Assembly: GCA_963764725.1 (NCBI GenBank) | Contig: CAVXTM010000010.1 | Span: 207,989-271,988, forward strand | Length of the DNA: 64,000 bases | Direction: 5' to 3' | Origin: an uncultured Gammaproteobacteria bacterium | Lineage (GTDB): Bacteria; Pseudomonadota; Gammaproteobacteria; JACCXJ01 | Part shown: piece after piece, positions 33,562 to 45,848 of the stretch | Layout of the letters: each line of letters starts with the position of its first letter | How positions within the stretch are numbered: the stretch's first letter is position 1 | Program-made: the position numbers and the translations under genes | The notes under the pieces: generated by a model | Database searches by the model: none | The model's input: the letters and a program-made list of their open reading frames with translations, nothing else | What the model was told of the DNA's origin: nothing

Positions 33562-36500
33562 ATGAATAATCAGTTCTTCGAAAGGCCCATTCTCAACTCT
33601 CCCTACGAGTACCCGTCTCGTTACTGGGAGCTCGATGAGCAGGGCCAGCCGACTCAGAGAATCATCGAGCGCCGCCGCCGCGCCGAGTTCATCACGCCGA
33701 TTCCGAAGCCGAAGAAAGCGCAAGGGTTCGGCTGAACAAACGTCCTTTCGTCTTCGACGAAGGCAAAGGACTCTCCACCGCAGAAGCAGCAGTACGACCA
33801 CACAGCCATCATCAATTCGAGTTCGCCAGCAGGTGGACCAGTGGCGGCGCTTGCCGAATCCCAACGACTGGCGCGTAACCCCGGAGACGGCGCGCCTGCT
33901 TCAGCACTGGCGGCATCACAAATTCAGCAGCATCCGTCCGTTCTTCTGTCAGATCGAGGCGGTCGAGACCGCCATCTGGCTGACCGAAGTCGCACCCCAG
34001 GCGGGCAAGGTGGGCGAGGGTTTTCTTGAACACCTGGCCAATGCCAACAACGACGCCAACCCGGAGCTCATGCGCCTCGCGCTGAAGCTGGCCACCGGTG
34101 CCGGCAAGACCACGGTCATGGCGATGCTCATCGCCTGGCAAACCATCAACGCGGTGCGGCGACCGCAGAGCAAACGCTTCACGCGCGGCTTTCTCGTCGT
34201 CGCACCGGGCCTCACGATCAAGGATCGCCTGCGCGTCCTGCAACCGAACGATCCGGACAGCTACTACCAGAGCCGCGAACTGGTTCCGGGCGACATGCTG
34301 GACGACGTGAACCGCGCCAAGATCGTCATCACCAACTATCACGCCTTCAAGCTTCGCGAGCGGATCGATCTTTCCAAGGGCGGACGCTCGCTGCTCCAAG
34401 GGCGCGGCGAAGAGCTGAACACCCTCGAAACCGAGGGCCAGATGCTCCAGCGGGTGATGCCCGATCTGATGGGCATGAAGAACATTCTCGTGCTCAACGA
34501 CGAAGCCCACCACTGCTATCGAGAGAAGCCGGGAGCCGATGACGAGGAAGATCTGAAAGGGCGACGACAAGAAGGAGGCCGAGAAGAACAACGAAGCCGC
34601 CCGTCTCTGGATCTCCGGCCTTGAAACCGTCAATCGCAAACTCGGCGTCGCACGCGTGATCGACTTGTCCGCGACGCCGTTCTTTCTGCGCGGCTCAGGC
34701 TATGCCGAGGGCACGCTGTTCCCGTGGACGATGAGCGACTTCTCGCTGATGGACGCCATCGAGTGCGGCATCGTCAAATTGCCGCGCGTGCCGGTGGCCG
34801 ACAACATTCCCGGCGCGGAGATGCCGATGTTCCGCAACCTCTGGGAACACATTCGCTCGAAGATGCCGAAGAAGGGGCCGAGGCAAAGCCAATACGCTCG
34901 ATCCACTGAGCCTGCCGCCGCAACTCCAGACAGCACTCGAAGCCCTTTACGGTCACTACGAAAAGACCTTCGCCTTTGGGAGAAGGCCGGAATTCGCGTG
35001 CCTCCCTGCTTCATCGTGGTCTGCAACAACACCTCCACCTCCAAGCTGGTATACGACTTCATCTCCGGCTTTCACCGGCAGAACGATGACGGCTCTAGCA
35101 CTCTTGGTAAACGGGCGCCTCGCGCTGTTCCGCAACTTCGACGAGCACGGCAACCCGTTCCCGCGGCCGAACACACTGCTCATCGACAGCGAGCAGCTCG
35201 AATCCGGCGAGGCGCTGGATGACAATTTCCGCGCTATGGCCGCCGATGAGATCGAGCGCTTCCGCCGCGAGATCCTCGAACGCGGCGGCCAAGCTCGCCG
35301 ATGAACTGCAAAAGGGGAAAGAACTCGATGATGTGACACTGCTCCGCGAAGTGATGAATACCGTCGGCAAGTACGGCCAGTTGGGCGGATCGATTCGTTG
35401 CGTCGTTTCCGTCTCGATGCTCACCGAGGGCTGGGATGCCAATACCGTCACCCACGTGCTCGGCGTGCGCGCCTTCGGCACCCAGCTCCTGTGCGAGCAG
35501 GTCATCGGACGGGCGCTGCGCCGCCAGTCCTACGACCTGAACGAAGAAGGTCTCTTCAATGTGGAATACGCCGACGTGCTCGGCATTCCCTTCGACTTCA
35601 CCGCCAAGCCGGTGGTCGCGCCGCCACAACCGCCGCGCGAGACCATCCAGGTCAAGGCGGTGCGGCCCGATCGCGATGCGCTCGAAATCCGCTTCCCGCG
35701 TGTCGAAGGCTATCGCGTCGAGTTGCCCGAGGAACGGCTGACCGCCGAGTTCAACGAAGACTCCGTGCTCGAACTGACGCCGGATCTGGTCGGGGCCACC
35801 GAAACGCAGAAACTCCGGAATCATCGGCGAGACGGTGGACCTCAATCTCGTGCATACCGGCGACGTGCGGCCGTCGCAGGTCGCTGTACGAGCTGACGTC
35901 GCACCTGGTGCTGACGCAAGTGGCGCGACGCCCGGCGAAGACCGCAAGCTGCACCTGTTCGGCCAGCTCAAGCGCATCGCCAAGCAGTGGCTCGACGGAG
36001 TATTTGGTTTGCAAAGGCGGTACCTATCCTGCGCAGCTCAAGTACAAGATGCTGGCCGACATGGCCTGCGAGCGGATCATGGCGGGAATCACGCGCGAGT
36101 TCGATCGGCGAGCGCCCCATCAAAGCCGTGCTCGATCCCTACAATCCCACCGGCTCCACGAGCACACGTCAACTTCAACACGTCAAAGCCGGATCGCTGG
36201 GAAACCGACTCCCGCCGTTGTCACATCAACTGGGTCGTGCTCGACAGCGATTGGGAGGCCGAGTTCTGCCGCGTGGCCGAATCGCACCCGCGTGTCCGAG
36301 CCTACGTCAAGAACCACAACCTCGGTCTTGAAGTGCCTTACCGTTACGGCTCGGAGACGCGCAGGTACCTGCCCGACTTCATCGTGCTGGTGGACGACGG
36401 GCACGGCGAAGACGATCTCCTGCACCTCATCGTCGAGATCAAAGGCTACCGGCGCGAGGACGCCAAGGAAAAGAAATCCACCATGGACACCTACTGGGTG

Positions 36501-36650
36501 CCTGGCGTTAATCATCTCGGGACACATGGCCGCTGGGCTTTTGCCGAGTTCACCGAGGTCTATCAGATCGAGGCCGACTTCGAAGCGAAAGTCAAAGCCG
36601 AGTTCAATAAGATGATCGAAACGTATACCGGTCGAATCGGCCCGGAGTAA
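33562..36650 (+). pseudogene. Type III-like restriction endonuclease/helicase Res subunit (BPTD_3080-like), with many frameshifts in this sequence
   Basis: Stitched frames give MNNQFFERPILNSPYEYP, LKLATGAGKT (Walker A), LNDEAHH, SATP, MLTEGWD, EQVIGRALRR and nuclease YLPDF...VEIKG. About ten or more single-base indels, which may be sequencing errors. Confidence 0.9.
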
Positions 36651-36744
36651 TCTAGTCAATCAAATAGCAGCAACACGCATCAGGAGGCATCATGGCCAAT
36701 ACGCTACCGTTGGACAAAATGTCGCCTGGAAGAACGGCTCCAAC

Positions 36745-37035
36745 ATGAACAGAAACGAAACATTGAAACTCCTGCAAACCCACAAGCCGTACTTGGCCCG
36801 GGAGTTCGGCGTTACCGCTTTGGCTCTGTTCGGCTCCATCGCGCGCGATGTCGCGGGCGCGAACAGCGACGTGGACATCCTGATCGCCTTCGATGGCCCA
36901 GCGACATCAAAGCGTTATTTCGGTGTCCAGTTCTATCTGGAAGACCTGCTGGGCCGCCCTGTGGATCTGGTGACGGTAAAGGCACTGCGTCCGGAGCTGC
37001 GCTCCCACATCGAGCGAGAGGCCATCCATGTCTAA
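36745..37035 (+). CDS. MNT minimal nucleotidyltransferase antitoxin
   Basis: LFGSIARD...SDVDILI (GSx10DxD), LEDLLGRPVDLV. Confidence 0.92.
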   Translation: MNRNETLKLLQTHKPYLAREFGVTALALFGSIARDVAGANSDVDILIAFDGPATSKRYFGVQFYLEDLLGRPVDLVTVKALRPELRSHIEREAIHV

Positions 37036-37387
37036 TGGAGTGCGGGGCGAGCGCGAGTGGCGTTTCTACGTAGACGACATGATCGTCTTCGCGGAAAAGG
37101 TTCTGTCTTACACCAACGGATTGGATCAATCCAGTTTCGTTGCCGACGGGCTCACCTACGATGCCACCCTGCGCAACCTGGAGCTGATCGGCGAGGCGGC
37201 TACCCACATCCCCGACGCGGTGCGCGCCGCTCATCCCGACATCCCGTGGCGGCTGATCATCGCCACGCGCAACCGCCTGATCCACGCCTACTTGGGCATT
37301 GACGACGATACGCTCTGGAGCATCGTCCAGGACGACATCCCTGCGTTCCTGACGGCCTTGCAGAAGCTCAAGCAAGCCCACCAGTGA
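37028..37387 (+). CDS. HEPN (DUF86/HepT) RNase toxin
   Basis: RNLELIGEAA, IPW and the RNRLIHAY (Rx4HxY) HEPN motif; overlaps the MNT gene. Confidence 0.92.
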   Translation: MSNGVRGEREWRFYVDDMIVFAEKVLSYTNGLDQSSFVADGLTYDATLRNLELIGEAATHIPDAVRAAHPDIPWRLIIATRNRLIHAYLGIDDDTLWSIVQDDIPAFLTALQKLKQAHQ

Positions 37388-39258
37388 TGTGACCGCAACA
37401 ACGGATAGCTCTCCATGGCTAGAAACAAATCGGACACCAAGAAGACCGTCGAAACCCTCAAGCACGACGAGGCCACGCGCAAAAACATTCCGACTGCTGA
37501 ATATCAGTCGGTGATGCAGAAGCACGAGCAGGCCCCCGTCCGCGTGACCTACGAGCGCGGTGCAGCCGGGCTCGACGATGCGAAAGAGCAGCGCAACCGC
37601 GACCTCGATCCGCAGCTCGTCTGGCGCGGCAAGGACGAGCAGGACTGGAGCGACCTCGTCGTCCACGCCCCGCCGCTCTACATCCAGGAGAAGGTACACC
37701 CCAAGGTGCTCATCGACGACCTGCTCAAGCAGACTCGCGAGCAGCGCGCGCAAGAAGTCGGCGCGCAGTTCGATCTCTTTGGCGACTTCAACGGCATCCC
37801 CGAGGGCGTGGACAAGACCGAGTTCTACCAGCACGACCAGAACTGGTCGAACCGCATGATCCTCGGCGACAGTCCTACAGGTGATGGCGAGCCTCGCCGA
37901 GCGCGAAGGACTGCGCGGCAAGGTGCAATGCATCTACCTCGACCCGCCCTACGGCATCAAATTCAACAGCAACTTCCAGTGGACTACCACCAGCCGCGAC
38001 GTGAAGGACGGCAAGGCCGACCACATCACCCGCGAGCCAGAGCAGGTCAAAGCCTTCCGCGACACCTGGCGCGACGGCATCCACAGCTACCTCACGTATC
38101 TGCGCGACCGGCTGACCGTGGCGCGGGATTTACTGACGGATTCGGGTTCGATCTTCGTGCAGATCGGGGATGAGAATGTGCATCGCGTGCGGGCGGTGAT
38201 GGATGAGGTGTTTGGGGACGAGAACTTTATCGTTGCAAATCGACTTCGCCACAACGACGAGCCAAACCTGCGCAATTCGTGTCGAGTATTTCAGACCACA
38301 TCCTTTGGTATTGCAAAGGACAGATTGCAGACGAAATATCCGGGAGCTGTAGCTTTCGAAGGATCGTGAGAGGCAGGAAACATCTTCGTTTCGCGCTTTA
38401 CGAACACGATTTCGTAATCTCACGCAATCCTGCAAACGAGAATGCTCGGCTGTCGGTATTTGGTGATCTTCACTTCTCGGTCCGGCGGGGAGTCCTCAAC
38501 GGCGACCATTCCGTCTGGTTTGGCCACGACTTTATCCCGAACTGCCGGCGGAGTGGAAGACCAGCTTGGTCGGCTTAGAAAGGTTAGGGAAAGCCCATCG
38601 ACTTGGTCTACGTGGCAAGAATGCCTTCTACAAGAGATACTTCGACGATTGGCCATTTTCCCCAATGCCAAACGCTTGGACTGGACACTCAATCCGGAGG
38701 GCTCGGTGTTGAGAGCAGGATCTATGTCGTTCAGACGAACTTTAAGGTAATAGAGCGCTGCATCCTGATGACCACCGACCCCGGCGACCTTGTCCTCGAC
38801 CCGACCTGCGGTTCCGGCACCACCGCCACCGTCGCCGAGCAATGGGGCGGGTCGCCGCTGGATCACGATTGACACCTCGCGCGTGGCACTGGCGCTTGGC
38901 CCGGGCTCGCATCATGGGTGCGCGCTATCCGTATTACCTGCTGACCGATTCGCGCGAAGGCCAGATCAAGGAAGCCGAAGTGACCCGCACCGTGCCGTCC
39001 TCGCAAGCGGTCCGCGGCAGCATCCGCCACGGATTCGTTTACGAGCGTGTGCCGCACATCACGCTCAAGTCCATCGCCAACAACGTGGAGATTGACGTCA
39101 TCTGGGATAAATACCAGGCCATCCTCGAACCTCTGCGCGAGCAACTCAACGAAGCTCTTGTAGGATAATGGTATGGACTCCTCCCCTCCCTAACGGCATC
39201 GTGATGTGCCAAAGTGGAGGATGTAACAACCACTTGAACAGAAGAGGAGAAGTCCGCT

Positions 39259-40275
39259 ATGAACGTTACAACAATCGGGTTAGACATTGCAAAGAATGTC
39301 TTTCAGGCACACGGTGTGGACGGGAAGGGGAAGGTCGCGGTGCGCAAGTCGCTCAGGCGAGGGCAGGTCTTGGCGTTCTTCGCCAACCTCGACCCTTGCG
39401 TGGTAGGGATCGAAGCCTGCGCCGGCGCACACTACTGGGCGCGGGAGCTGGGGAAGCTCGGGCATACGGTCAGGCTCATCAGCCCGCAGTTCGTCAAGCC
39501 CTACGTGAAGGGGAACAAGAATGACAAGAACGACGCGGAGGCGATCTGCGAGGCGGTGGGGCGCCCGAACATGCGTTTTGTGCCGGTGAAGAGCACCGAG
39601 AGCCAAGACATTCTGGCGCTGCACCGGGTACGCAGTGGGTTGGTAAAGGAACGCACCGCGCAGGCAAACCGGCTGCGGGGTTTGTTAGGCGAGTATGGCA
39701 TCGTCATCGGTCAGGGCTTGGCGCAGGTACGCAAGCGCCTGCCGGAGATCTTGGAAGACGGCGAGAACGGCCTGAGTGGCTTGGCGCGAGAGCTGTTTGC
39801 CGATCTCCACCGGCAGGTCCTGGAGCTGGACCGGCAAGTGGGGGCCTACGGCGTCAAGCTCCAAGGGCTCTACCATGCGAGCGAGGCGTGCCAGAGGATT
39901 GGCCGGATGCCGGGGGTAGGGCCGATCACGGCGACGGCGGCCGTCGCCTCGGTCGGTGATGGTCGAGCGTTCGAGTCCGGGCGGCAGGTCGCGGCCTGGG
40001 TGGGGCTCGTGCCGCGGCAGGATTCGAGCGGGGGCAAGCCCAAGCTCCTGGGGATCAGCAAGCGGGGCGATACCTACCTGCGCACTCTGCTCATCCACGG
40101 GGCGCGGTCCGTGGTGAAGGCGGCGGCCAAGAAGACCGACGCCCAGAGCCGGTGGATCAACGACCTCGTCAAACGGCGCAACAAGAACATCGCAGCGGTG
40201 GCGGTGGAAAAGAGCTCGGGCGATCTGGGCGCTCCTGAGGCGAGACGAGGGTTACCGCGCGCGGGTTTCGGTTGA
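39259..40275 (+). CDS. IS1111-type DEDD recombinase/transposase (frameshift near the C-terminus)
   Basis: IGLDIAK, GIEAC, KNDKNDAEAI, catalytic Ser motif SSGGK. The normal tail (ARAIWALLRRDEGY) continues in another frame from about 40210. Confidence 0.94.
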   Translation: MNVTTIGLDIAKNVFQAHGVDGKGKVAVRKSLRRGQVLAFFANLDPCVVGIEACAGAHYWARELGKLGHTVRLISPQFVKPYVKGNKNDKNDAEAICEAVGRPNMRFVPVKSTESQDILALHRVRSGLVKERTAQANRLRGLLGEYGIVIGQGLAQVRKRLPEILEDGENGLSGLARELFADLHRQVLELDRQVGAYGVKLQGLYHASEACQRIGRMPGVGPITATAAVASVGDGRAFESGRQVAAWVGLVPRQDSSGGKPKLLGISKRGDTYLRTLLIHGARSVVKAAAKKTDAQSRWINDLVKRRNKNIAAVAVEKSSGDLGAPEARRGLPRAGFG

Positions 40276-40289
40276 CGCGTAGCACGCGA

Positions 40290-40535
40290 GGCCACAGGGT
40301 TTTTCACCTTCCACCCAGTTGCGAAGCATCTTTCGAAGCGATGGCAAAGCGGTCAGACCGGTGTTTTCAGCAATCCGCTCAGCGCATGGGCCTTCGAGGC
40401 CGGTAGGATGATTGAGATGAAGACACGCGGATATTCCATCGGGGCCAGAGGCATCGCAAGCCTCATTGACAGGCCGGATATATGGGAGCAACTGCGCTCA
40501 CCGACCGCTGCAATCAAAGCGAAAAGATGCTTGCA
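40290..40535 (+). ncRNA. Predicted seekRNA/bridge RNA of the IS1111-type element (ends approximate)
   Basis: CTCAGCGCAT (40378-40387; 9/10 match to the target bottom strand), hairpin GGCCTTCGAGGCC, then GTAGGATG (40403-40410; identical to the target top strand). Confidence 0.75.
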
Positions 40536-41123
40536 AATCGGGAGGAGTCCATATATGGGCTGAGGCACGAAGCCCATCAATCGCGACCGATGGGCTTCGT
40601 TCTTGCTCAGCCCATCCTACCAAGACGTTCAAACCCTTCGAAGAATGGGAGATTCCACGCGAGGTCGATGCCAAATGGCCGGACGCAGCCAAGAAGCTCC
40701 ATGCCCAATGGTGGGAACAACGCATCGCCCGCCAGCGTGAGATCGATGCGTCGATCGCCGCCAAGGCCGAGTTCGAATACCTCTACGACAAGCCCTACGA
40801 CAACAAGAAGATAGTTCGCGTGGCCGGGCCGTTCACCGTCGAGAGCCTTTCCCCGCACCGCATGCTCGGCGTGGACGAGAACGACGAATTGATTGATCGC
40901 GTCGCCGAACCCGGCGCTGACTACAGCGCCAAGCAGTCTTTTCCCCAGATGATCCTGGAAAACCTCAAAACCGCCGGCGTCCAGCAAGCACATAAGGAAG
41001 ACAAAATCACCTTCACCGCGCTTACGCCGTGGCCCGGCGATCTGGTCTGCGCCGAAGGCCGGTATGTCGAAACGCACCCCTCACCCCAACCCTTGTATGT
41101 TCTATTTTGTAGAAATTAATGAA

Positions 41124-42169
41124 ACGGGCTATCCACTTAACGCAAGTCACCGCTATATGTTGGGGTCCGGGCTGTTGACGATTTGGCGGTAAGACACTGG
41201 CGGCGTCGCCACGGCCTGTTGCATCAGGCGGTAGAAGAGAAGCCCGCGGGAGCGAGAGGTGCGCCGGTTGAAGCGAAACGTGTATTCGTCGAGGTAGTAG
41301 TCGAGGTACCTGCCACTTACCGCGCCTTGGTGAGTTCCGAGCAGCCAGCGTTTGAGCAGAGAGGCGATGCGGTGGACACCGGGCATCAGGACATGGGCCG
41401 GGTCTCCGCTGTCGGAGAGATTCGTCTTGATGCGCGTATATCCAGACTTCGTCATGTCGTTGTACCCGCCCCAGGCGTCGGTGAGAACTTCCGAACCGGG
41501 CTCAATGCTCTCGCGCACGAAAGGGACGAGATTGGCGCCGGAGGCGTCGGCCACACGTCTCATGCGCACGCGTCCAAATCCCTTCGGTTCGTGTAGTTCG
41601 ACGGCGATGACCACAATCTCCTTTCGTTCTGCTCCACGGCCACGCTTACCGCCTTTTTCGCTGCCTCCTACGAGCGTCTCGTCCACTTCAACGCGACCAT
41701 GAAGCCGCTCGCGCCCAGCTCGCACCATCGCGCGTCGCAGCTTATGCAACCAGGTCCATGCCGTTTGATAGCTTCCCAACCCCAGAACCCGCTTCAGGCC
41801 GAGAGCGTTGGCTCCATGCTTCTGACTCGTCACAAACCATATCGCCGCCAACCATGTCTTCAACGGGATACGCGTTCGCTCGAACATCGTACCTGCCGTG
41901 ACCGAGATCTCTGCACCGCAATCCCGACAATGCAGGTAACCTCGTCCCGTGATCCAGGGCGCACCGCTGGACCCACAGCGTGGACAGTGGTAACCCGCTG
42001 GCCAGCGAAGGCCCGCAAGATACTCGCGACAGCCCGCATCGTCCTCGAAAAAATCATTGAACTCGCCGAATGTCCGAGGGTAGTCGGACCCGCCGACTGG
42101 CCCTTCCCCTGTCCCCATGGGTAGCAAACACTAGATGTTGTGGTGACTTGCGTCAAGTGGATAGCCCGT
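41124..42169 (-). mobile_element. IS1595-family insertion sequence
   Basis: 28-bp TIRs ACGGGCTATCCACTT(A/G)ACGCAAGTCACC with one mismatch; 8-bp TSD TTAATGAA (41116-41123 and 42170-42177). Confidence 0.95.
41153..42127 (-). CDS. IS1595-family transposase
   Basis: Zn ribbon CPRC...CRDC, VEVDET, VLTD, YLDEYTFRFNRR. Confidence 0.95.
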   Translation of the reverse strand: MLPMGTGEGPVGGSDYPRTFGEFNDFFEDDAGCREYLAGLRWPAGYHCPRCGSSGAPWITGRGYLHCRDCGAEISVTAGTMFERTRIPLKTWLAAIWFVTSQKHGANALGLKRVLGLGSYQTAWTWLHKLRRAMVRAGRERLHGRVEVDETLVGGSEKGGKRGRGAERKEIVVIAVELHEPKGFGRVRMRRVADASGANLVPFVRESIEPGSEVLTDAWGGYNDMTKSGYTRIKTNLSDSGDPAHVLMPGVHRIASLLKRWLLGTHQGAVSGRYLDYYLDEYTFRFNRRTSRSRGLLFYRLMQQAVATPPVSYRQIVNSPDPNI

Positions 42170-42187
42170 TTAATGAAAATGTATTTC

Positions 42188-43308
<1,121 letters not shown>

Positions 43309-43700
43309 CTTTGAACACGGTTGCTCTCCCGCAAGGGGCGAGGGAGAAAAGCGGAGCGCCGCCCAAGGCTTGGAACCCTCTCCACCCAGTGGGGGGAGAG
43401 GGGAGGGTGAGGGGGGCGGAGTAGAAAAACGCGCCGCCATCTTCATCGGTCCGGAATTCGGTACCGTCACCCGCCCCGATCTGGTGGCCGCCGCGCGTGA
43501 GGCCGGCGATGCCGACTTTGACGTGCTGATCGCCTGCGCCTTCAACTACGAGGCACACGCGACCGAGTTTAGCAAGCTCGGCCGTATCCCCGTGCTCAAG
43601 GCGCGCATGAACGCCGACCTCCACATGGCCGAAGACCTCAAGAACACCGGCAAAGGCAATCTGTTCGTGATCTTCGGTGAACCGGATGTGGAAGTGGCTA

Positions 43701-44132
43701 GTGAAGAGTGGTTAGTGGATAGTGACGAGAAGAGAATCGCGCCTTATGAAATCTTTAAGCTCGTTTCGGGAGTTGATAGTCTGGCGGAAGTCAATCGACT
43801 TGGCCGTGAGGATTTACGCGACTACTCGCAGCTTTCCCACCGAGGAGAGATTTGGGATTACATCGCAAATGCGGCGGGCGGCGACCTCCATTCCGGCAAA
43901 CATCGCCGAGGGACAGGCGCGAAAAACGACGGGGGAGTTTCTGCAGTCGCTTGGCGTTGCGCGAGGATCTCTGGCGGAGCTGGAAACCTTTCTGACATTG
44001 TCCGAAAGATTGGAGTTTCTCACCAAACCGGACTCCGAGAGCTTACTCAACGCCTGCGCCGAGATCAACAAAATGCTCCACGCGCTCATGAAATCCTTAT
44101 CGACTCTCCACTAGCCACTAACCACTATTCAC
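43701..44132. mobile_element. Inverted-repeat-bounded four-helix-bundle cassette inserted in frame in mod
   Basis: 25-nt IRs at 43701-43725 and 44108-44132 (22/25 match) built from AGTGGNT heptamers; 432 nt long; the Mod frame has no stop across it. Confidence 0.8.
43746..44114 (+). CDS. Four helix bundle protein (23S rRNA IVS protein / Avd-like family)
   Basis: FRELIVWRKS, FPTEERFGITSQMRRAATSIPANIAEG, ARGSLAELET; encoded in the +1 frame inside mod. Confidence 0.93.
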   Translation: MKSLSSFRELIVWRKSIDLAVRIYATTRSFPTEERFGITSQMRRAATSIPANIAEGQARKTTGEFLQSLGVARGSLAELETFLTLSERLEFLTKPDSESLLNACAEINKMLHALMKSLSTLH

Positions 44133-44553
44133 AAGTCACTGTCCACGGCGTCGATATCTTCCACCCGCAGACCGGCGAAGTCCGCAGCGACGGCCCCGAA
44201 GGCATCGCCTGCTGGTTCATCGACACCGACTACAACGAAGAGAGCTTCTTCGTCCGCCACGCCTACTTCCTCGGTGCCAACGATCCCTACAGCGCCCTGA
44301 AAACGACCCTCAAAGCCGAGATCAACGACGAGGCCTGGGCCACCCTCAACAGCGACACCTCCCGCGCCTTCGACAAACCGAAGTCCGGGCGGATCGCCGT
44401 AAAAGTCATCAACCACCTTGGGGATGAGGTGATGAAGGTGTTCCGTGTTTGACAAAGTCCATATTGCATTGTTCTTGCGTAAAATGGATCGGCTATTGGC
44501 GATATATTGCCCAAATAATTTTAAAGACCCTTACCACATTTCACTCGACAACT

Positions 44554-45303
44554 ATGGCTAGGCAGCGGCATCTAACTCACGCACCGATTACCGAGGCACT
44601 GATCAACCTTCACGTAGAACATCGAGGTGGCCTTTCGTTTACGGCGCTCCAAGACGCGTTCAGTACTTTGGACTTCGGGTATTACTTAAAGGGGCCAATT
44701 TCCCTCGGGACTTTTGGCTTCAAACTTACAACCGATGGTCAGCAGCCGCAGACGACAGCAGATGCCACACAAATAGGACTGCGATTACATTCGTCGGATG
44801 AAAAATACGTCGCACAATGCCGGCTCGCAGGATTTACGTTGAGCCGTCTGCCGCCGTATGAGGCATGGCCGATGTTGGTTCAGGAAACGAAACGTGTCTG
44901 GTCGGTCTACAGGGACCGATTGGCCCCATTACGCGTGACTCGTGTAGCCACCCGCTTTATTAACAATCTACAACTTCCACTGGAGCACGGGGCGTCATTT
45001 CAGACGTATTTACAAAAATTTGCGGACCTTCCGGATGAAGCGCCACAGGCGGTTGCTTCGTTTTTTCAGCGCTTTCAATTGGTGGATGTCGCGAGTAATG
45101 CCTCTGTAAACTTGACTCTGGCGCTCGAATCGATGTCACCAGGCAGACCAGCGCCGGTGATTCTAGACGTTGACGCGTTCAGTTTTACGGACTTGGACCC
45201 CATGGACGATAAACTTTGGGTGATTCTTGAGCACCTGAGGACGCTGAAGAACAACAGTTTTTTTGGTAGCTTAACTGAGCGAGCAGCGGAGTTATACGGA
45301 TGA
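44554..45303 (+). CDS. TIGR04255-like uncharacterised protein
   Basis: Motifs HAPITEAL, RLPPYEAW, RVATRFINNL, ILDVDAF, LRTLKNNSFFGSLT recalled from this family. Confidence 0.8.
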   Translation: MARQRHLTHAPITEALINLHVEHRGGLSFTALQDAFSTLDFGYYLKGPISLGTFGFKLTTDGQQPQTTADATQIGLRLHSSDEKYVAQCRLAGFTLSRLPPYEAWPMLVQETKRVWSVYRDRLAPLRVTRVATRFINNLQLPLEHGASFQTYLQKFADLPDEAPQAVASFFQRFQLVDVASNASVNLTLALESMSPGRPAPVILDVDAFSFTDLDPMDDKLWVILEHLRTLKNNSFFGSLTERAAELYG

Positions 45304-45848
45304 GTTTAGCCATTGCAATTGGTGATTCGCGTCTAGCTTGGGAGTTTGACTATGAACCCATTACAGACAGTAGTCGCGAGATTCAGCGGGCGTGGGCGCA
45401 GAAAAGAAATTACCTGCAAGGAAGCGCGTCAGATTGGTTTCCGACTACAGAAGCAGCTCTTGGTAACATTAAAAAAGAGTGTGGCAGGACGGACTGGGAC
45501 GGCAGTGGCGCGATTCCAGTGAGTGATCAAGTGATCGATCTTGCGGCGGAAATTGTAGGATCGTTGTTTACGATACTGCCCCGAGGCACACCGGCGCCTG
45601 ATCTCATACCGGAAGCTGACGGGGAGATTTGTCTAAGCTGGTCCATTGATGCCAGCCGGTTATTTTCATTGAGCGTGGGCGCGCACGACAAGATCAATTT
45701 CGCTGGTCAGTTCGGCAAGGAGGGCGGTATTCATGCCTGGCAGCCGATTGATGCGACGAGTCGCAGCAGTCTTGAAAAATCTCTTCAAGACGCTGCTCGG
45801 TACATTGGGCGTCTCTACGCGCCGGCTACCATTAACCGTAAGTCCTGA
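45300..45848 (+). CDS. Hypothetical protein (DWDGSGAIP and PDLIPEADGEICLSW motifs)
   Basis: 182-aa ORF coupled to the upstream gene by an ATGA overlap. Confidence 0.7.
   Translation: MSLAIAIGDSRLAWEFDYEPITDSSREIQRAWAQKRNYLQGSASDWFPTTEAALGNIKKECGRTDWDGSGAIPVSDQVIDLAAEIVGSLFTILPRGTPAPDLIPEADGEICLSWSIDASRLFSLSVGAHDKINFAGQFGKEGGIHAWQPIDATSRSSLEKSLQDAARYIGRLYAPATINRKS

Follow-up and report, generated by a model that had tools for sequence, protein, structure and literature searches.

The window analysed here, 64,000 nucleotides of an uncultured gammaproteobacterium (contig C10:207989-271988 of genome G000), holds at 33.8-44.5 kb a Type III restriction-modification (R-M) locus with the gene order res, a MntA-like/HepT-like pair and mod. 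We conclude, with a probability of roughly 0.8, that this locus is a decayed R-M system and a graveyard of nested mobile elements, in which insertion sequences (IS) were drawn in by repeats, and that it is not a switch. The mod gene, which starts at 37415 and ends at 44452, carries three inserts that keep its reading frame: a doublet of GTAGG palindromes (site 1), a compound CCCTCACCC/CCCTCTCCC palindrome (site 2) and a four-helix-bundle (4HB) cassette (site 3). Two IS110-family elements, IS_A of the IS1111 type and IS_B, split the first two. So far an initial annotation of the same DNA had placed every feature correctly, and sequence and domain content bear it out; it had missed a third IS, lodged in IS_B, and the extent of the decay.

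Elements of the IS110 family go to sequences that match their guides. Once a repeat has become established within a gene, it draws such an element in, and this suffices to explain the 'landing pad' with no need of a switch. In what follows, L labels denote genome loci and P labels proteins; part of the supporting loci come from unpublished genomes, and C8, C11 and C18 are other contigs of the window genome.

IS_A interrupts an in-frame GTAGG palindrome

The stretches on either side of IS_A (39160-39165 and 40556-40620) together form an inverted doublet of GTAGG...GAAGCCCATC units, which reads in the mod frame as ..LNEALVG/WAEARSPSIATDGLRSCSAHPT.. and is stop-free in only one of the three frames. 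Its GTAG-type 5' end, imperfect palindrome and inverted doublet give it the shape of a repetitive extragenic palindromic (REP) sequence or REPIN, and to that extent the name REP used in the initial annotation stands. The repeat is nonetheless rare, with 5 matches at no more than 2 mismatches in a genome that has six Y1_Tnp matches, and the copy at site 1 is intragenic.

The transposase of IS_A (39259-40275) combines the DEDD_Tnp_IS110 (PF01548) and Transposase_20 (PF02371) domains and scores 340 bits, against a cut-off of 140, with the NCBIfam model NF033542 'IS110 family RNA-guided transposase'. The element has 13-bp subterminal inverted repeats (ATGGACTCCTCCC at 39173-39185 and GGGAGGAGTCCAT at 40540-40552), terminal extensions of 7 bp on the left (39166-39172) and 3 bp on the right (40553-40555), no target duplication, and a 3' non-coding region of 280 nt (40276-40555) after the transposase gene. 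Subterminal repeats of 11-13 bp, 7-bp left and 3-bp right extensions and the lack of a target duplication are features of the IS1111 group according to PMC11187229.

Removal of IS_A joins ..CTTGTAGGA with TGGGCTGAGG.. to give ..LNEALVGWAEARSP.. and restores the mod frame exactly. Such restoration is in itself trivial for any insertion into an open reading frame (ORF); the informative evidence is that empty sites occur naturally. The ends of IS_A agree with the empty-site allele L002, from a same-genus genome (G005, unpublished), in which the site-1 repeat is uninterrupted, as it also is in the public proteins P0002, P0010, P0013, P0014, P0050, P0065 and P0100. Two other copies of the element exist in the genome, one full at the end of C8 and one fragment of 349 bp on C11; both have the left flank ..AGTAGGA, as in mod. 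Compared with the intact C8 copy, the transposase gene of IS_A has a 5-bp deletion at 40207 with adjacent substitutions, which alters the last ~25 residues, so that the element in mod has no intact transposase gene. The second arm of the doublet, at 40589-40620, is an inverted and unoccupied copy of the IS_A target.

The 3' non-coding region contains a guide-like segment, CTCAGCGCAT (40380-40389), that complements the top strand ATGCGCTGAG; against the mod repeat ATGGGCTGAG a single position is mismatched, and at the target of the C8 copy 8 nt match perfectly. Next come a GGCC..GGCC hairpin and GTAGGATG (40403-40410), which is identical to the top strand; at the insertion point the two matching stretches overlap. 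In IS1111-type seekRNAs the complement of the top strand likewise precedes the match to the bottom strand, with overlap at the target (PMC11187229). The putative pairings of IS_A would follow this order and overlap.

Among known systems, IS_A is closest to the REP-targeting elements of the IS1111 group, such as ISPa11 and ISPpu9 of Pseudomonas putida, with which it shares the DEDD/IS110-type transposase, the inverted repeats and extensions, the long downstream non-coding region (PMC11187229), the guide layout and a GTAGG-type palindrome as a target that is not duplicated (same source and PMC12288879). It differs from them in that its target palindrome is part of a protein-coding gene, in whose frame it is read, and in that its transposase gene is frameshifted.

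IS_B occupies a compound palindrome and is itself interrupted

At site 2, the segments 41075-41093 and 43326-43416 make up a CCCCTCACCCC..CCCTCTCCC compound palindrome with the in-frame reading ..THPSPQP/SPARGEGEK... The intervening IS_B has a left non-coding end of 213 nt (41094-41124 plus 42170-42360), a transposase gene at 42361-43308, a right end of 17 bp and CT at both boundaries. An IS110-type transposase, a long non-coding region upstream of it and a CT core place the element in the IS110/IS621 group. An IS1595-family element on the opposite strand breaks this left end behind its nucleotide 31. This nested element has terminal inverted repeats, a 9-bp target duplication (TTAATGAAA), the Pfam domains DDE_Tnp_IS1595 and Zn_ribbon_IS1595 and an NCBIfam match, and a second, identical copy lies on C18 (86258-87270).

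Removal of IS_B joins ..CCCCAACCCT with CTCCCGCAAGG.. to give ..THPSPQPSPARGEG.., again in exact frame, and here too a natural allele matches the empty site: in L012/L005, a public metagenome-assembled genome (MAG) of the Chromatiales, the whole compound palindrome is uninterrupted (..CCCCAACCCTCTCCCACAAGG..). The metagenomic protein P0001 starts inside the right end of IS_A, with its first 35 residues equal to the window ORF 40482-40814, and continues into mod; its site 2 is uninterrupted, with a 42-residue segment equal to that predicted for the window. This fusion together with the uninterrupted site 2 means that at least one other allele carries IS_A at site 1 and lacks IS_B.

The genome has 5 further copies of IS_B, of which 4 sit in the same type of palindrome, flanked by ..CCCTCACCC(3-4 nt)CCCT at their left and by CTCCC..GGGAG at their right ends; in the remaining copy the right half alone is present. 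The junctions ..CCCT/TGTATG and GGTTGCT/CTCCC recur in five of the six copies, and three copies are 100% identical and gap-free over 1161-1162 bp. Uninterrupted CCCTCACCC(N3-4)CCCTCTCCC sites number 11 in the genome, both strands counted. One copy, at C18:332585-333772, pairs the usual right flank with an unrelated left flank, which suggests a deletion or rearrangement at that copy.

In the left end of IS_B, CCAGCCCT (nucleotides 101-108) repeats the left flank and CT at all positions but one, and GGGAGAG (126-132) complements CTCTCCC, that is, the core plus the right flank; in the minimum-free-energy fold the two lie on opposite sides of an internal loop. A further segment, ACGGTTGCT (170-178), equals the element's own right end. 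These short matches make the segments candidates for guides that would pair with the target. IS_B resembles the bridge-RNA elements of the IS621/IS110 group in its long left end (213 nt) and short right end (17 nt), in the CT boundaries, the strict target and, in the predicted fold, the guide-like segments that flank an internal loop. It differs from them in that its bridge RNA is a candidate drawn from short matches and without a match in Rfam, and in that the left end is broken by the IS1595 element.

The view that palindromes in mod are guide-addressable sites agrees with the guide-like matches of both elements and with the presence of their other copies in the same repeat types. It is supported as the ordinary target specificity of IS110-family elements.

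mod and res are broken at many other points

The locus has the parts of a Type III system, a Mod with N6_N4 motifs and an adjoining Res with helicase and endonuclease domains; their reading frames are not intact. In blastx against full-length homologues, mod runs ahead of IS_A through frames 2, 3, then, past the variable target-recognition region, 1, 2, 3 and 1. Extra bases lie at four places (+1 near 37871-37874, +1 at 38236, +4 (GGGT) at 38849-38852 and +1 near 38894-38897), and there are several further frame changes within the target-recognition region. These indels were called by DNA alignment against unpublished loci, and the calls were repeated against the public loci L010, L013, L016, L022, L028, L042 and L048. 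The Res of another genome in the genus (L094) is intact, with 951 aa; aligned with it, res shows at least five frame changes (2, 3, 1, 2, 3, 1), and the longest open frame of res is 261 aa, compared with up to 1074 aa in relatives.

The indels in mod, res and IS_A lie outside homopolymer runs, and frame breaks are absent from the MntA, HepT and 4HB ORFs and from the C-terminal half of mod, which measures 1.7 kb. Since these are not homopolymer errors, and three copies of IS_B are identical over ~1160 bp, assembly error is an unlikely source of them. The initial annotation had listed real frameshifts upstream in mod among the findings that would speak against its switch, and on the evidence of the assembly we take them as real. 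With at least five breaks in mod beyond the insertions and at least five frame changes in res, the loss of both IS would still leave the enzyme without function.

Recurrent in-frame inserts in the Mod family

The segment of mod between IS_A and IS_B has at least 8000 homologues, typically of 930-940 aa and 80-90% identical. Inserts were counted in the best 120 homologues, of which 80 could be scored at site 1, 103 at site 2 and 115 at site 3. The base form of site 1 (7 residues) occurs in 56 of the 80 and an insert of 18-46 residues in the other 24; at site 2, 60 of 103 have the base form (5-9 residues) and 43 an insert (13-48 residues). Site 3 has its base form (14-15 residues) in 102 of 115, and three homologues have a 161-residue read-through of the 4HB cassette. 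The sets of proteins compared are skewed towards the queries with which they were gathered. The expectation that repeats would recur at the same loops of mod homologues was therefore borne out at sites 1 and 2.

At least five types of insert are found at site 1: VGWAE..RSRSAHPT (n=9), QDEQDLQD..NPVNPV (n=5), PSPQPSPARGEG and related forms (n=5), VGSAHH..SAPY (n=2) and SREGGNP..LRGNDG (n=3). The DNA of L004 and L012 adds further repeat types, and inserts at site 2 are likewise of many types. In an AlphaFold2 model of an insert-free homologue, site 1 joins one helix to the next, and sites 2 and 3 fall in the turns of beta-hairpins, which would make all three surface loops.

We read this pattern as a selection filter: insertion of repeats is indiscriminate, and only those that keep the frame, bring no stop and do the structure no harm persist. 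Palindromic elements in Rickettsia are reportedly inserted in frame into ORFs, an observation attributed to Ogata and colleagues (2000), and REPINs are said to go back to Bertels and Rainey (2011). The mod repeats are like them in persisting in intact genes when in frame, stop-free and in tolerant loops. Unlike the Rickettsia elements, they belong to several unrelated families, sit at 2-3 positions of one Mod family and have then become IS targets. A single, widely transferred Type III Mod family whose same loops are repeatedly colonised by unrelated repeats is a natural map of insertion-tolerant positions.

One partial Mod relative, P0060 from a Chloroflexota MAG, has an insert inside the DPTCGSG motif of Mod, where ..VYDLEVEGAHSFVTETCTVHN precedes 14 further residues. 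We take this insert to resemble the C-terminal end of an intein (HN + Cys motif) carrying a DUF559/Vsr-like endonuclease domain.

A proposed course from landing pad to graveyard

In the course of events that we propose, the mod allele would come from this widely transferred family, whose turns and loops tolerate in-frame selfish repeats, and would at the outset have carried its three inserts: the GTAGG doublet in loop 1, the CCCTCACCC/CCCTCTCCC palindrome in loop 2 and the 4HB cassette in loop 3. Two IS110-family elements with guide regions matching these repeat types would then have integrated into loops 1 and 2, following the repeats and not the gene, as they did with such repeats elsewhere in the genome. 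The IS1595 insertion into IS_B, the 5-bp loss in the transposase gene of IS_A and the many frameshifts in mod and res would have come later, in whatever sequence. The anatomy and boundaries, the natural empty sites, the indels, the restriction of IS copies to particular repeat types and the selection on the host frame across the 4HB cassette are directly shown; guide pairings, order of events and surface loops are inferred.

Several observations weigh against the account. Both IS retain their ends and guide regions, and the genome has further, intact copies that could supply the enzyme in trans, so that excision is mechanistically possible. The frameshifts are called from the assembly alone. 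The few genomic copies of GTAGG make the REP family of this genome a weak label, and the guide assignment of IS_B consists of 7-8 nt matches, one of them mismatched, and a minimum-free-energy fold. An Rfam search (E-value mode) of 36500-45500 matched no family, hence no curated guide RNA, and the AlphaFold2 model behind the loop assignment is of low confidence (mean pLDDT 54, pTM 0.40), usable for local secondary structure only.

IS492-type phase variation, in which an IS110-family element is excised precisely from an interrupted gene, is the precedent for the reading put forward in the initial annotation: a reversible two-lock switch, in which RNA-guided excision of both IS turns mod and restriction on and re-insertion turns them off. 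The locus is similar in that a gene is broken at a defined point by a member of the IS110 family, whose excision could in principle leave the gene intact; it differs in that the interrupted mod is dead for other reasons. At each of the two sites precise removal does restore the frame, the genome holds intact donor copies of IS_A and of IS_B elsewhere, and P0001 documents a related metagenomic allele with IS_A at site 1 and an empty site 2; this last state is, however, explained equally well by sequential insertion. Excision of IS110-family elements regenerates the target and has been detected at native Escherichia coli loci, where IS621 excises precisely but less efficiently than it inserts (PMC13626964). 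Even so, excision here would leave the enzyme non-working, given the at least five further breaks in each of mod and res, and IS_B now holds a 1-kb IS1595 element. A scan of metagenomes for the right end of IS_A returned 12 contigs; in none does it adjoin mod, so that no instance of IS_A in mod was found there beyond P0001, and several of the right flanks resemble other REP-type hairpins. We give a switch at this locus hardly any credence.

Much of this argument would fall if the frameshifts were assembly errors and the R-M genes, intact save for the IS, had been inactivated recently and possibly reversibly. The assembly is in 19 contigs and the indels come from it alone; yet one of them is a 4-bp insertion (GGGT), another a 5-bp deletion with adjacent substitutions, and none falls in a homopolymer run, while three IS_B copies are gap-free and identical and the ORFs of MntA, HepT and 4HB and half of mod are unbroken. 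Such an origin strikes us as improbable. The inserts might also be nothing but an ordinary variable linker of Mod, with palindromes and IS matches coincidental. The site-1 GTAGG insert looks monophyletic in homologues, with the common flanking residues KPFEEW, and the repeat is rare in the genome, as a linker would have it. Most homologues, however, have no insert at sites 1 and 3, the unrelated repeat types at site 1 fall in different alleles, the inserts match repeats that outside mod are occupied by the same IS elements, and free-standing relatives of the 4HB gene stand in unrelated contexts with the same flanking arrays. The chance that the inserts are mere linker is very slim, and the decayed, repeat-targeted locus remains the preferred reading.

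The 4HB cassette is kept open in two frames

The cassette at site 3 is built of an array of imperfect heptamers (GTGGCTA GTGAAGA GTGGTTA GTGGATA ..), a 4HB ORF and the inverse array. The ORF encodes a 23S_rRNA_IVP protein of 122 aa (PF05635, Pfam E 1.5e-38; TIGR02436 match) and is the sole such gene in the window genome. It lies in frame 0 / +1 relative to mod, which reads through it stop-free in frame 2; the arrays have stops in two frames, and the third is stop-free. The resulting read-through peptide (147 aa) matches 182 protein clusters, and the best 120 of these are nearly all PF01555 Mods of ~1060-1140 aa, or fragments.

A search with the 4HB protein against one genome per species gave 79 loci. 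Mod-like flanks are present at 60 of them, and in 57 of the 79 a host ORF in the -1 frame spans the 4HB gene. Going by record titles, carriers belong to the Gammaproteobacteria, Chloroflexota, Planctomycetota, Nitrospirota, Cyanobacteria, Verrucomicrobiota, Bacillota, Bacteroidota and others, and the hosts include Mods whose C-terminal flank is just 32-40% identical to that of the window. The host frame is stop-free across the 4HB ORF in 58 of 61 embedded copies, the window included. When synonymous codons were permuted within each ORF it stayed open in a mean of 4.4% of trials, and in free-standing relatives the equivalent frame is open in 3 of 19. The host frame through the cassette is thus under selection to stay open. 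Variability at 4HB codon positions 1, 2 and 3 is 0.52, 0.51 and 1.17 bits (57 sequences, 118 columns), and this third-position peak indicates that the 4HB protein is under purifying selection, whereas in the host frame selection acts against stops and nothing else.

A FastTree tree was built from the C-terminal regions of 172 Mods, 75 of them with the cassette, after its columns had been taken out. On this tree the cassette state changes 6 times, against 53-59 in five shuffles: for the most part the cassette passes down with the Mod lineage that holds it, and gains or losses are few. The two arrays can pair with each other. Over 28 pairs and 38 loci, 81.3% of cells are paired, against 28-53% with slid partners, the stem having been taken from one of the tested sequences and the slid controls being inflated by the heptamer period. 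In 11 of the 28 pairs both sides have changed, and in the AT-rich variants L080 and L084 both arrays have changed together.

Free-standing 4HB relatives carry the same kind of arrays in unrelated contexts. By Pfam matches to 10 ORFs at 9 of the 19 free loci, their neighbours are DNA polymerase III alpha, a symporter, a sulfatase, a cytochrome and IDH. Such free copies point to a self-contained element. In eight Caldilineaceae loci (L066, L067, L069, L071, L073, L076, L077 and L081) the free-standing gene adjoins an ORF of ~1050-1090 aa, which is DNA polymerase III alpha (DnaE-like) in L067 and L073; in the others the neighbour was judged from its ORF size alone.

Beyond Type III Mods, the read-through peptide has weak matches in Eco57I/MmeI-type methyltransferases (P0288, E 1.7e-4; P0294, E 5.9e-4), which share the boundary peptides of the cassette, and there is a weak match to the PglX profile as well. 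These hint at Eco57I/MmeI- and PglX-type methyltransferases as further hosts. Solo heptamer-array hairpins without a 4HB ORF occur in frame at several further loops in L011:890-2698, P0288 and P0294, where they yield SGQWLV.., ..PLATHHSPLA and similar peptides; possibly they derive from the cassette as miniature forms of it.

In the Coxiella 23S rRNA, the intervening sequence (IVS) is 428 nt long, with an S23p ORF, tandem heptameric repeats ahead of it and excision by RNase III at a stem, according to PMC4990558. The cassette is like the IVSs of Coxiella and Leptospira in its PF05635 ORF (with TIGR02436), its flanking inverted repeats, its upstream heptamers and its size (~446 bp); it differs in lying in the protein-coding mod and not in a 23S helix. 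A host frame kept open through the cassette implies translation through it and not simple excision by RNase III. The 4HB gene would be translated from its own start, ahead of which many loci have a Shine-Dalgarno-like (SD-like) GGAGG or GAAGAG at ~8-10 nt, and translation of Mod would continue across the cassette, adding to the enzyme a probably disordered loop of ~147 residues.

Two other modes of expression were considered and set aside. Phase variation by slippage in the heptamer arrays, where 7 nt shift the frame, is rejected for the embedded copies, since their repeats are imperfect and are preserved from phylum to phylum; a ribosome that bypassed the cassette would be at odds with a host frame that is kept open inside it.

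Taken together, these data tentatively suggest, at somewhat less than even odds in our judgement, an IVS-type selfish element that lives in protein-coding genes as well as in 23S rRNA. Its ~147 codons would be read in two frames and kept in Type III Mods across many phyla, perhaps also in Eco57I/PglX-like and MmeI-like methyltransferases, with solo arrays as miniatures, and the Mod family would be a favoured haven of selfish DNA of several classes, among them the palindromes, what may be an intein, and IS elements. In a literature search outside subscription journals and supplementary files we found no description of a 4HB or IVS-protein gene inside a methyltransferase gene. To our knowledge, no function or mobility mechanism of S23p/4HB intervening sequences has been reported since they were first described. 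An S23p-type element in a second kind of host, with clear two-frame coding selection, makes its function testable in cultured carriers, among which are Thiocapsa imhoffii DSM 21303 (L040), Thiorhodococcus minor DSM 11518 (L032) and Spirulina sp. CCNP1310 (L058).

Layout of the locus and neighbouring genes

Feature coordinates are collected in Table 1. The MntA-like and HepT-like ORFs are both intact despite the broken res and mod on either side of them; their MntA_antitoxin and HepT_toxin NCBIfam matches score under the curated cut-offs. On the C-terminal part of mod, the PADLOC model MTase_III PDLC03632 matches with E 3.7e-108.

Table 1 Features of the Type III R-M locus, in window coordinates
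Feature	Position	Strand	Evidence
res pseudogene (ResIII helicase part and endonuclease part)	33784..36650	+	Pfam ResIII and RE_endonuc on fragments; blastx
MntA-like nucleotidyltransferase and HepT-like RNase pair, between res and mod	36745..37387	+	Pfam NTP_transf_2, HepT-like
N-terminal part of the mod pseudogene, with the target-recognition region, N6_N4 methyltransferase motifs and at least 5 frame breaks	37415..39165	+	blastx; PADLOC MTase_III PDLC03632
Site 1, left stub GTAGGA of the in-frame GTAGG palindrome doublet	39160..39165	+	sequence; uninterrupted repeat in L002, P0002, P0100 and others
IS_A, IS1111-type IS110-family element, 1390 bp	39166..40555	+	Pfam, NCBIfam, ends
Site 1, remainder of the GTAGG doublet, in-frame reading WAEARSPSIATDGLRSCSAHPT	40556..40620	+	sequence, homologues
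mod middle segment, no frame break	40621..41074	+	84-94% identity to homologues; PADLOC MTase_III
Site 2, left part of the in-frame CCCCTCACCCC..CCCT compound palindrome	41075..41093	+	sequence; empty allele L012/L005
IS_B, IS110-type element, 1178 bp intact, 2232 bp here	41094..43325	+	Pfam, NCBIfam, copies
IS1595-family element nested in the left end of IS_B, 1045 bp, transposase 41153-42127	41125..42169	-	Pfam, NCBIfam, junctions
Site 2, right part of the compound palindrome, in-frame reading SPARGEGEKRSAAQGLEPSPPSGGRGEGEGGG	43326..43416	+	sequence, homologues
4HB cassette, ~446 bp: heptamer array, SD-like stretch, 4HB ORF 43746-44114, inverse heptamer array	43694..44139	+	Pfam, NCBIfam, arrays
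mod C-terminal conserved 104 codons	44140..44452	+	87-93% identity to homologues

Downstream, in the stretch 44449-45848, a TIGR04255-family gene begins 4 nt ahead of the mod stop codon and precedes a 182-aa ORF that overlaps it and has no family match.

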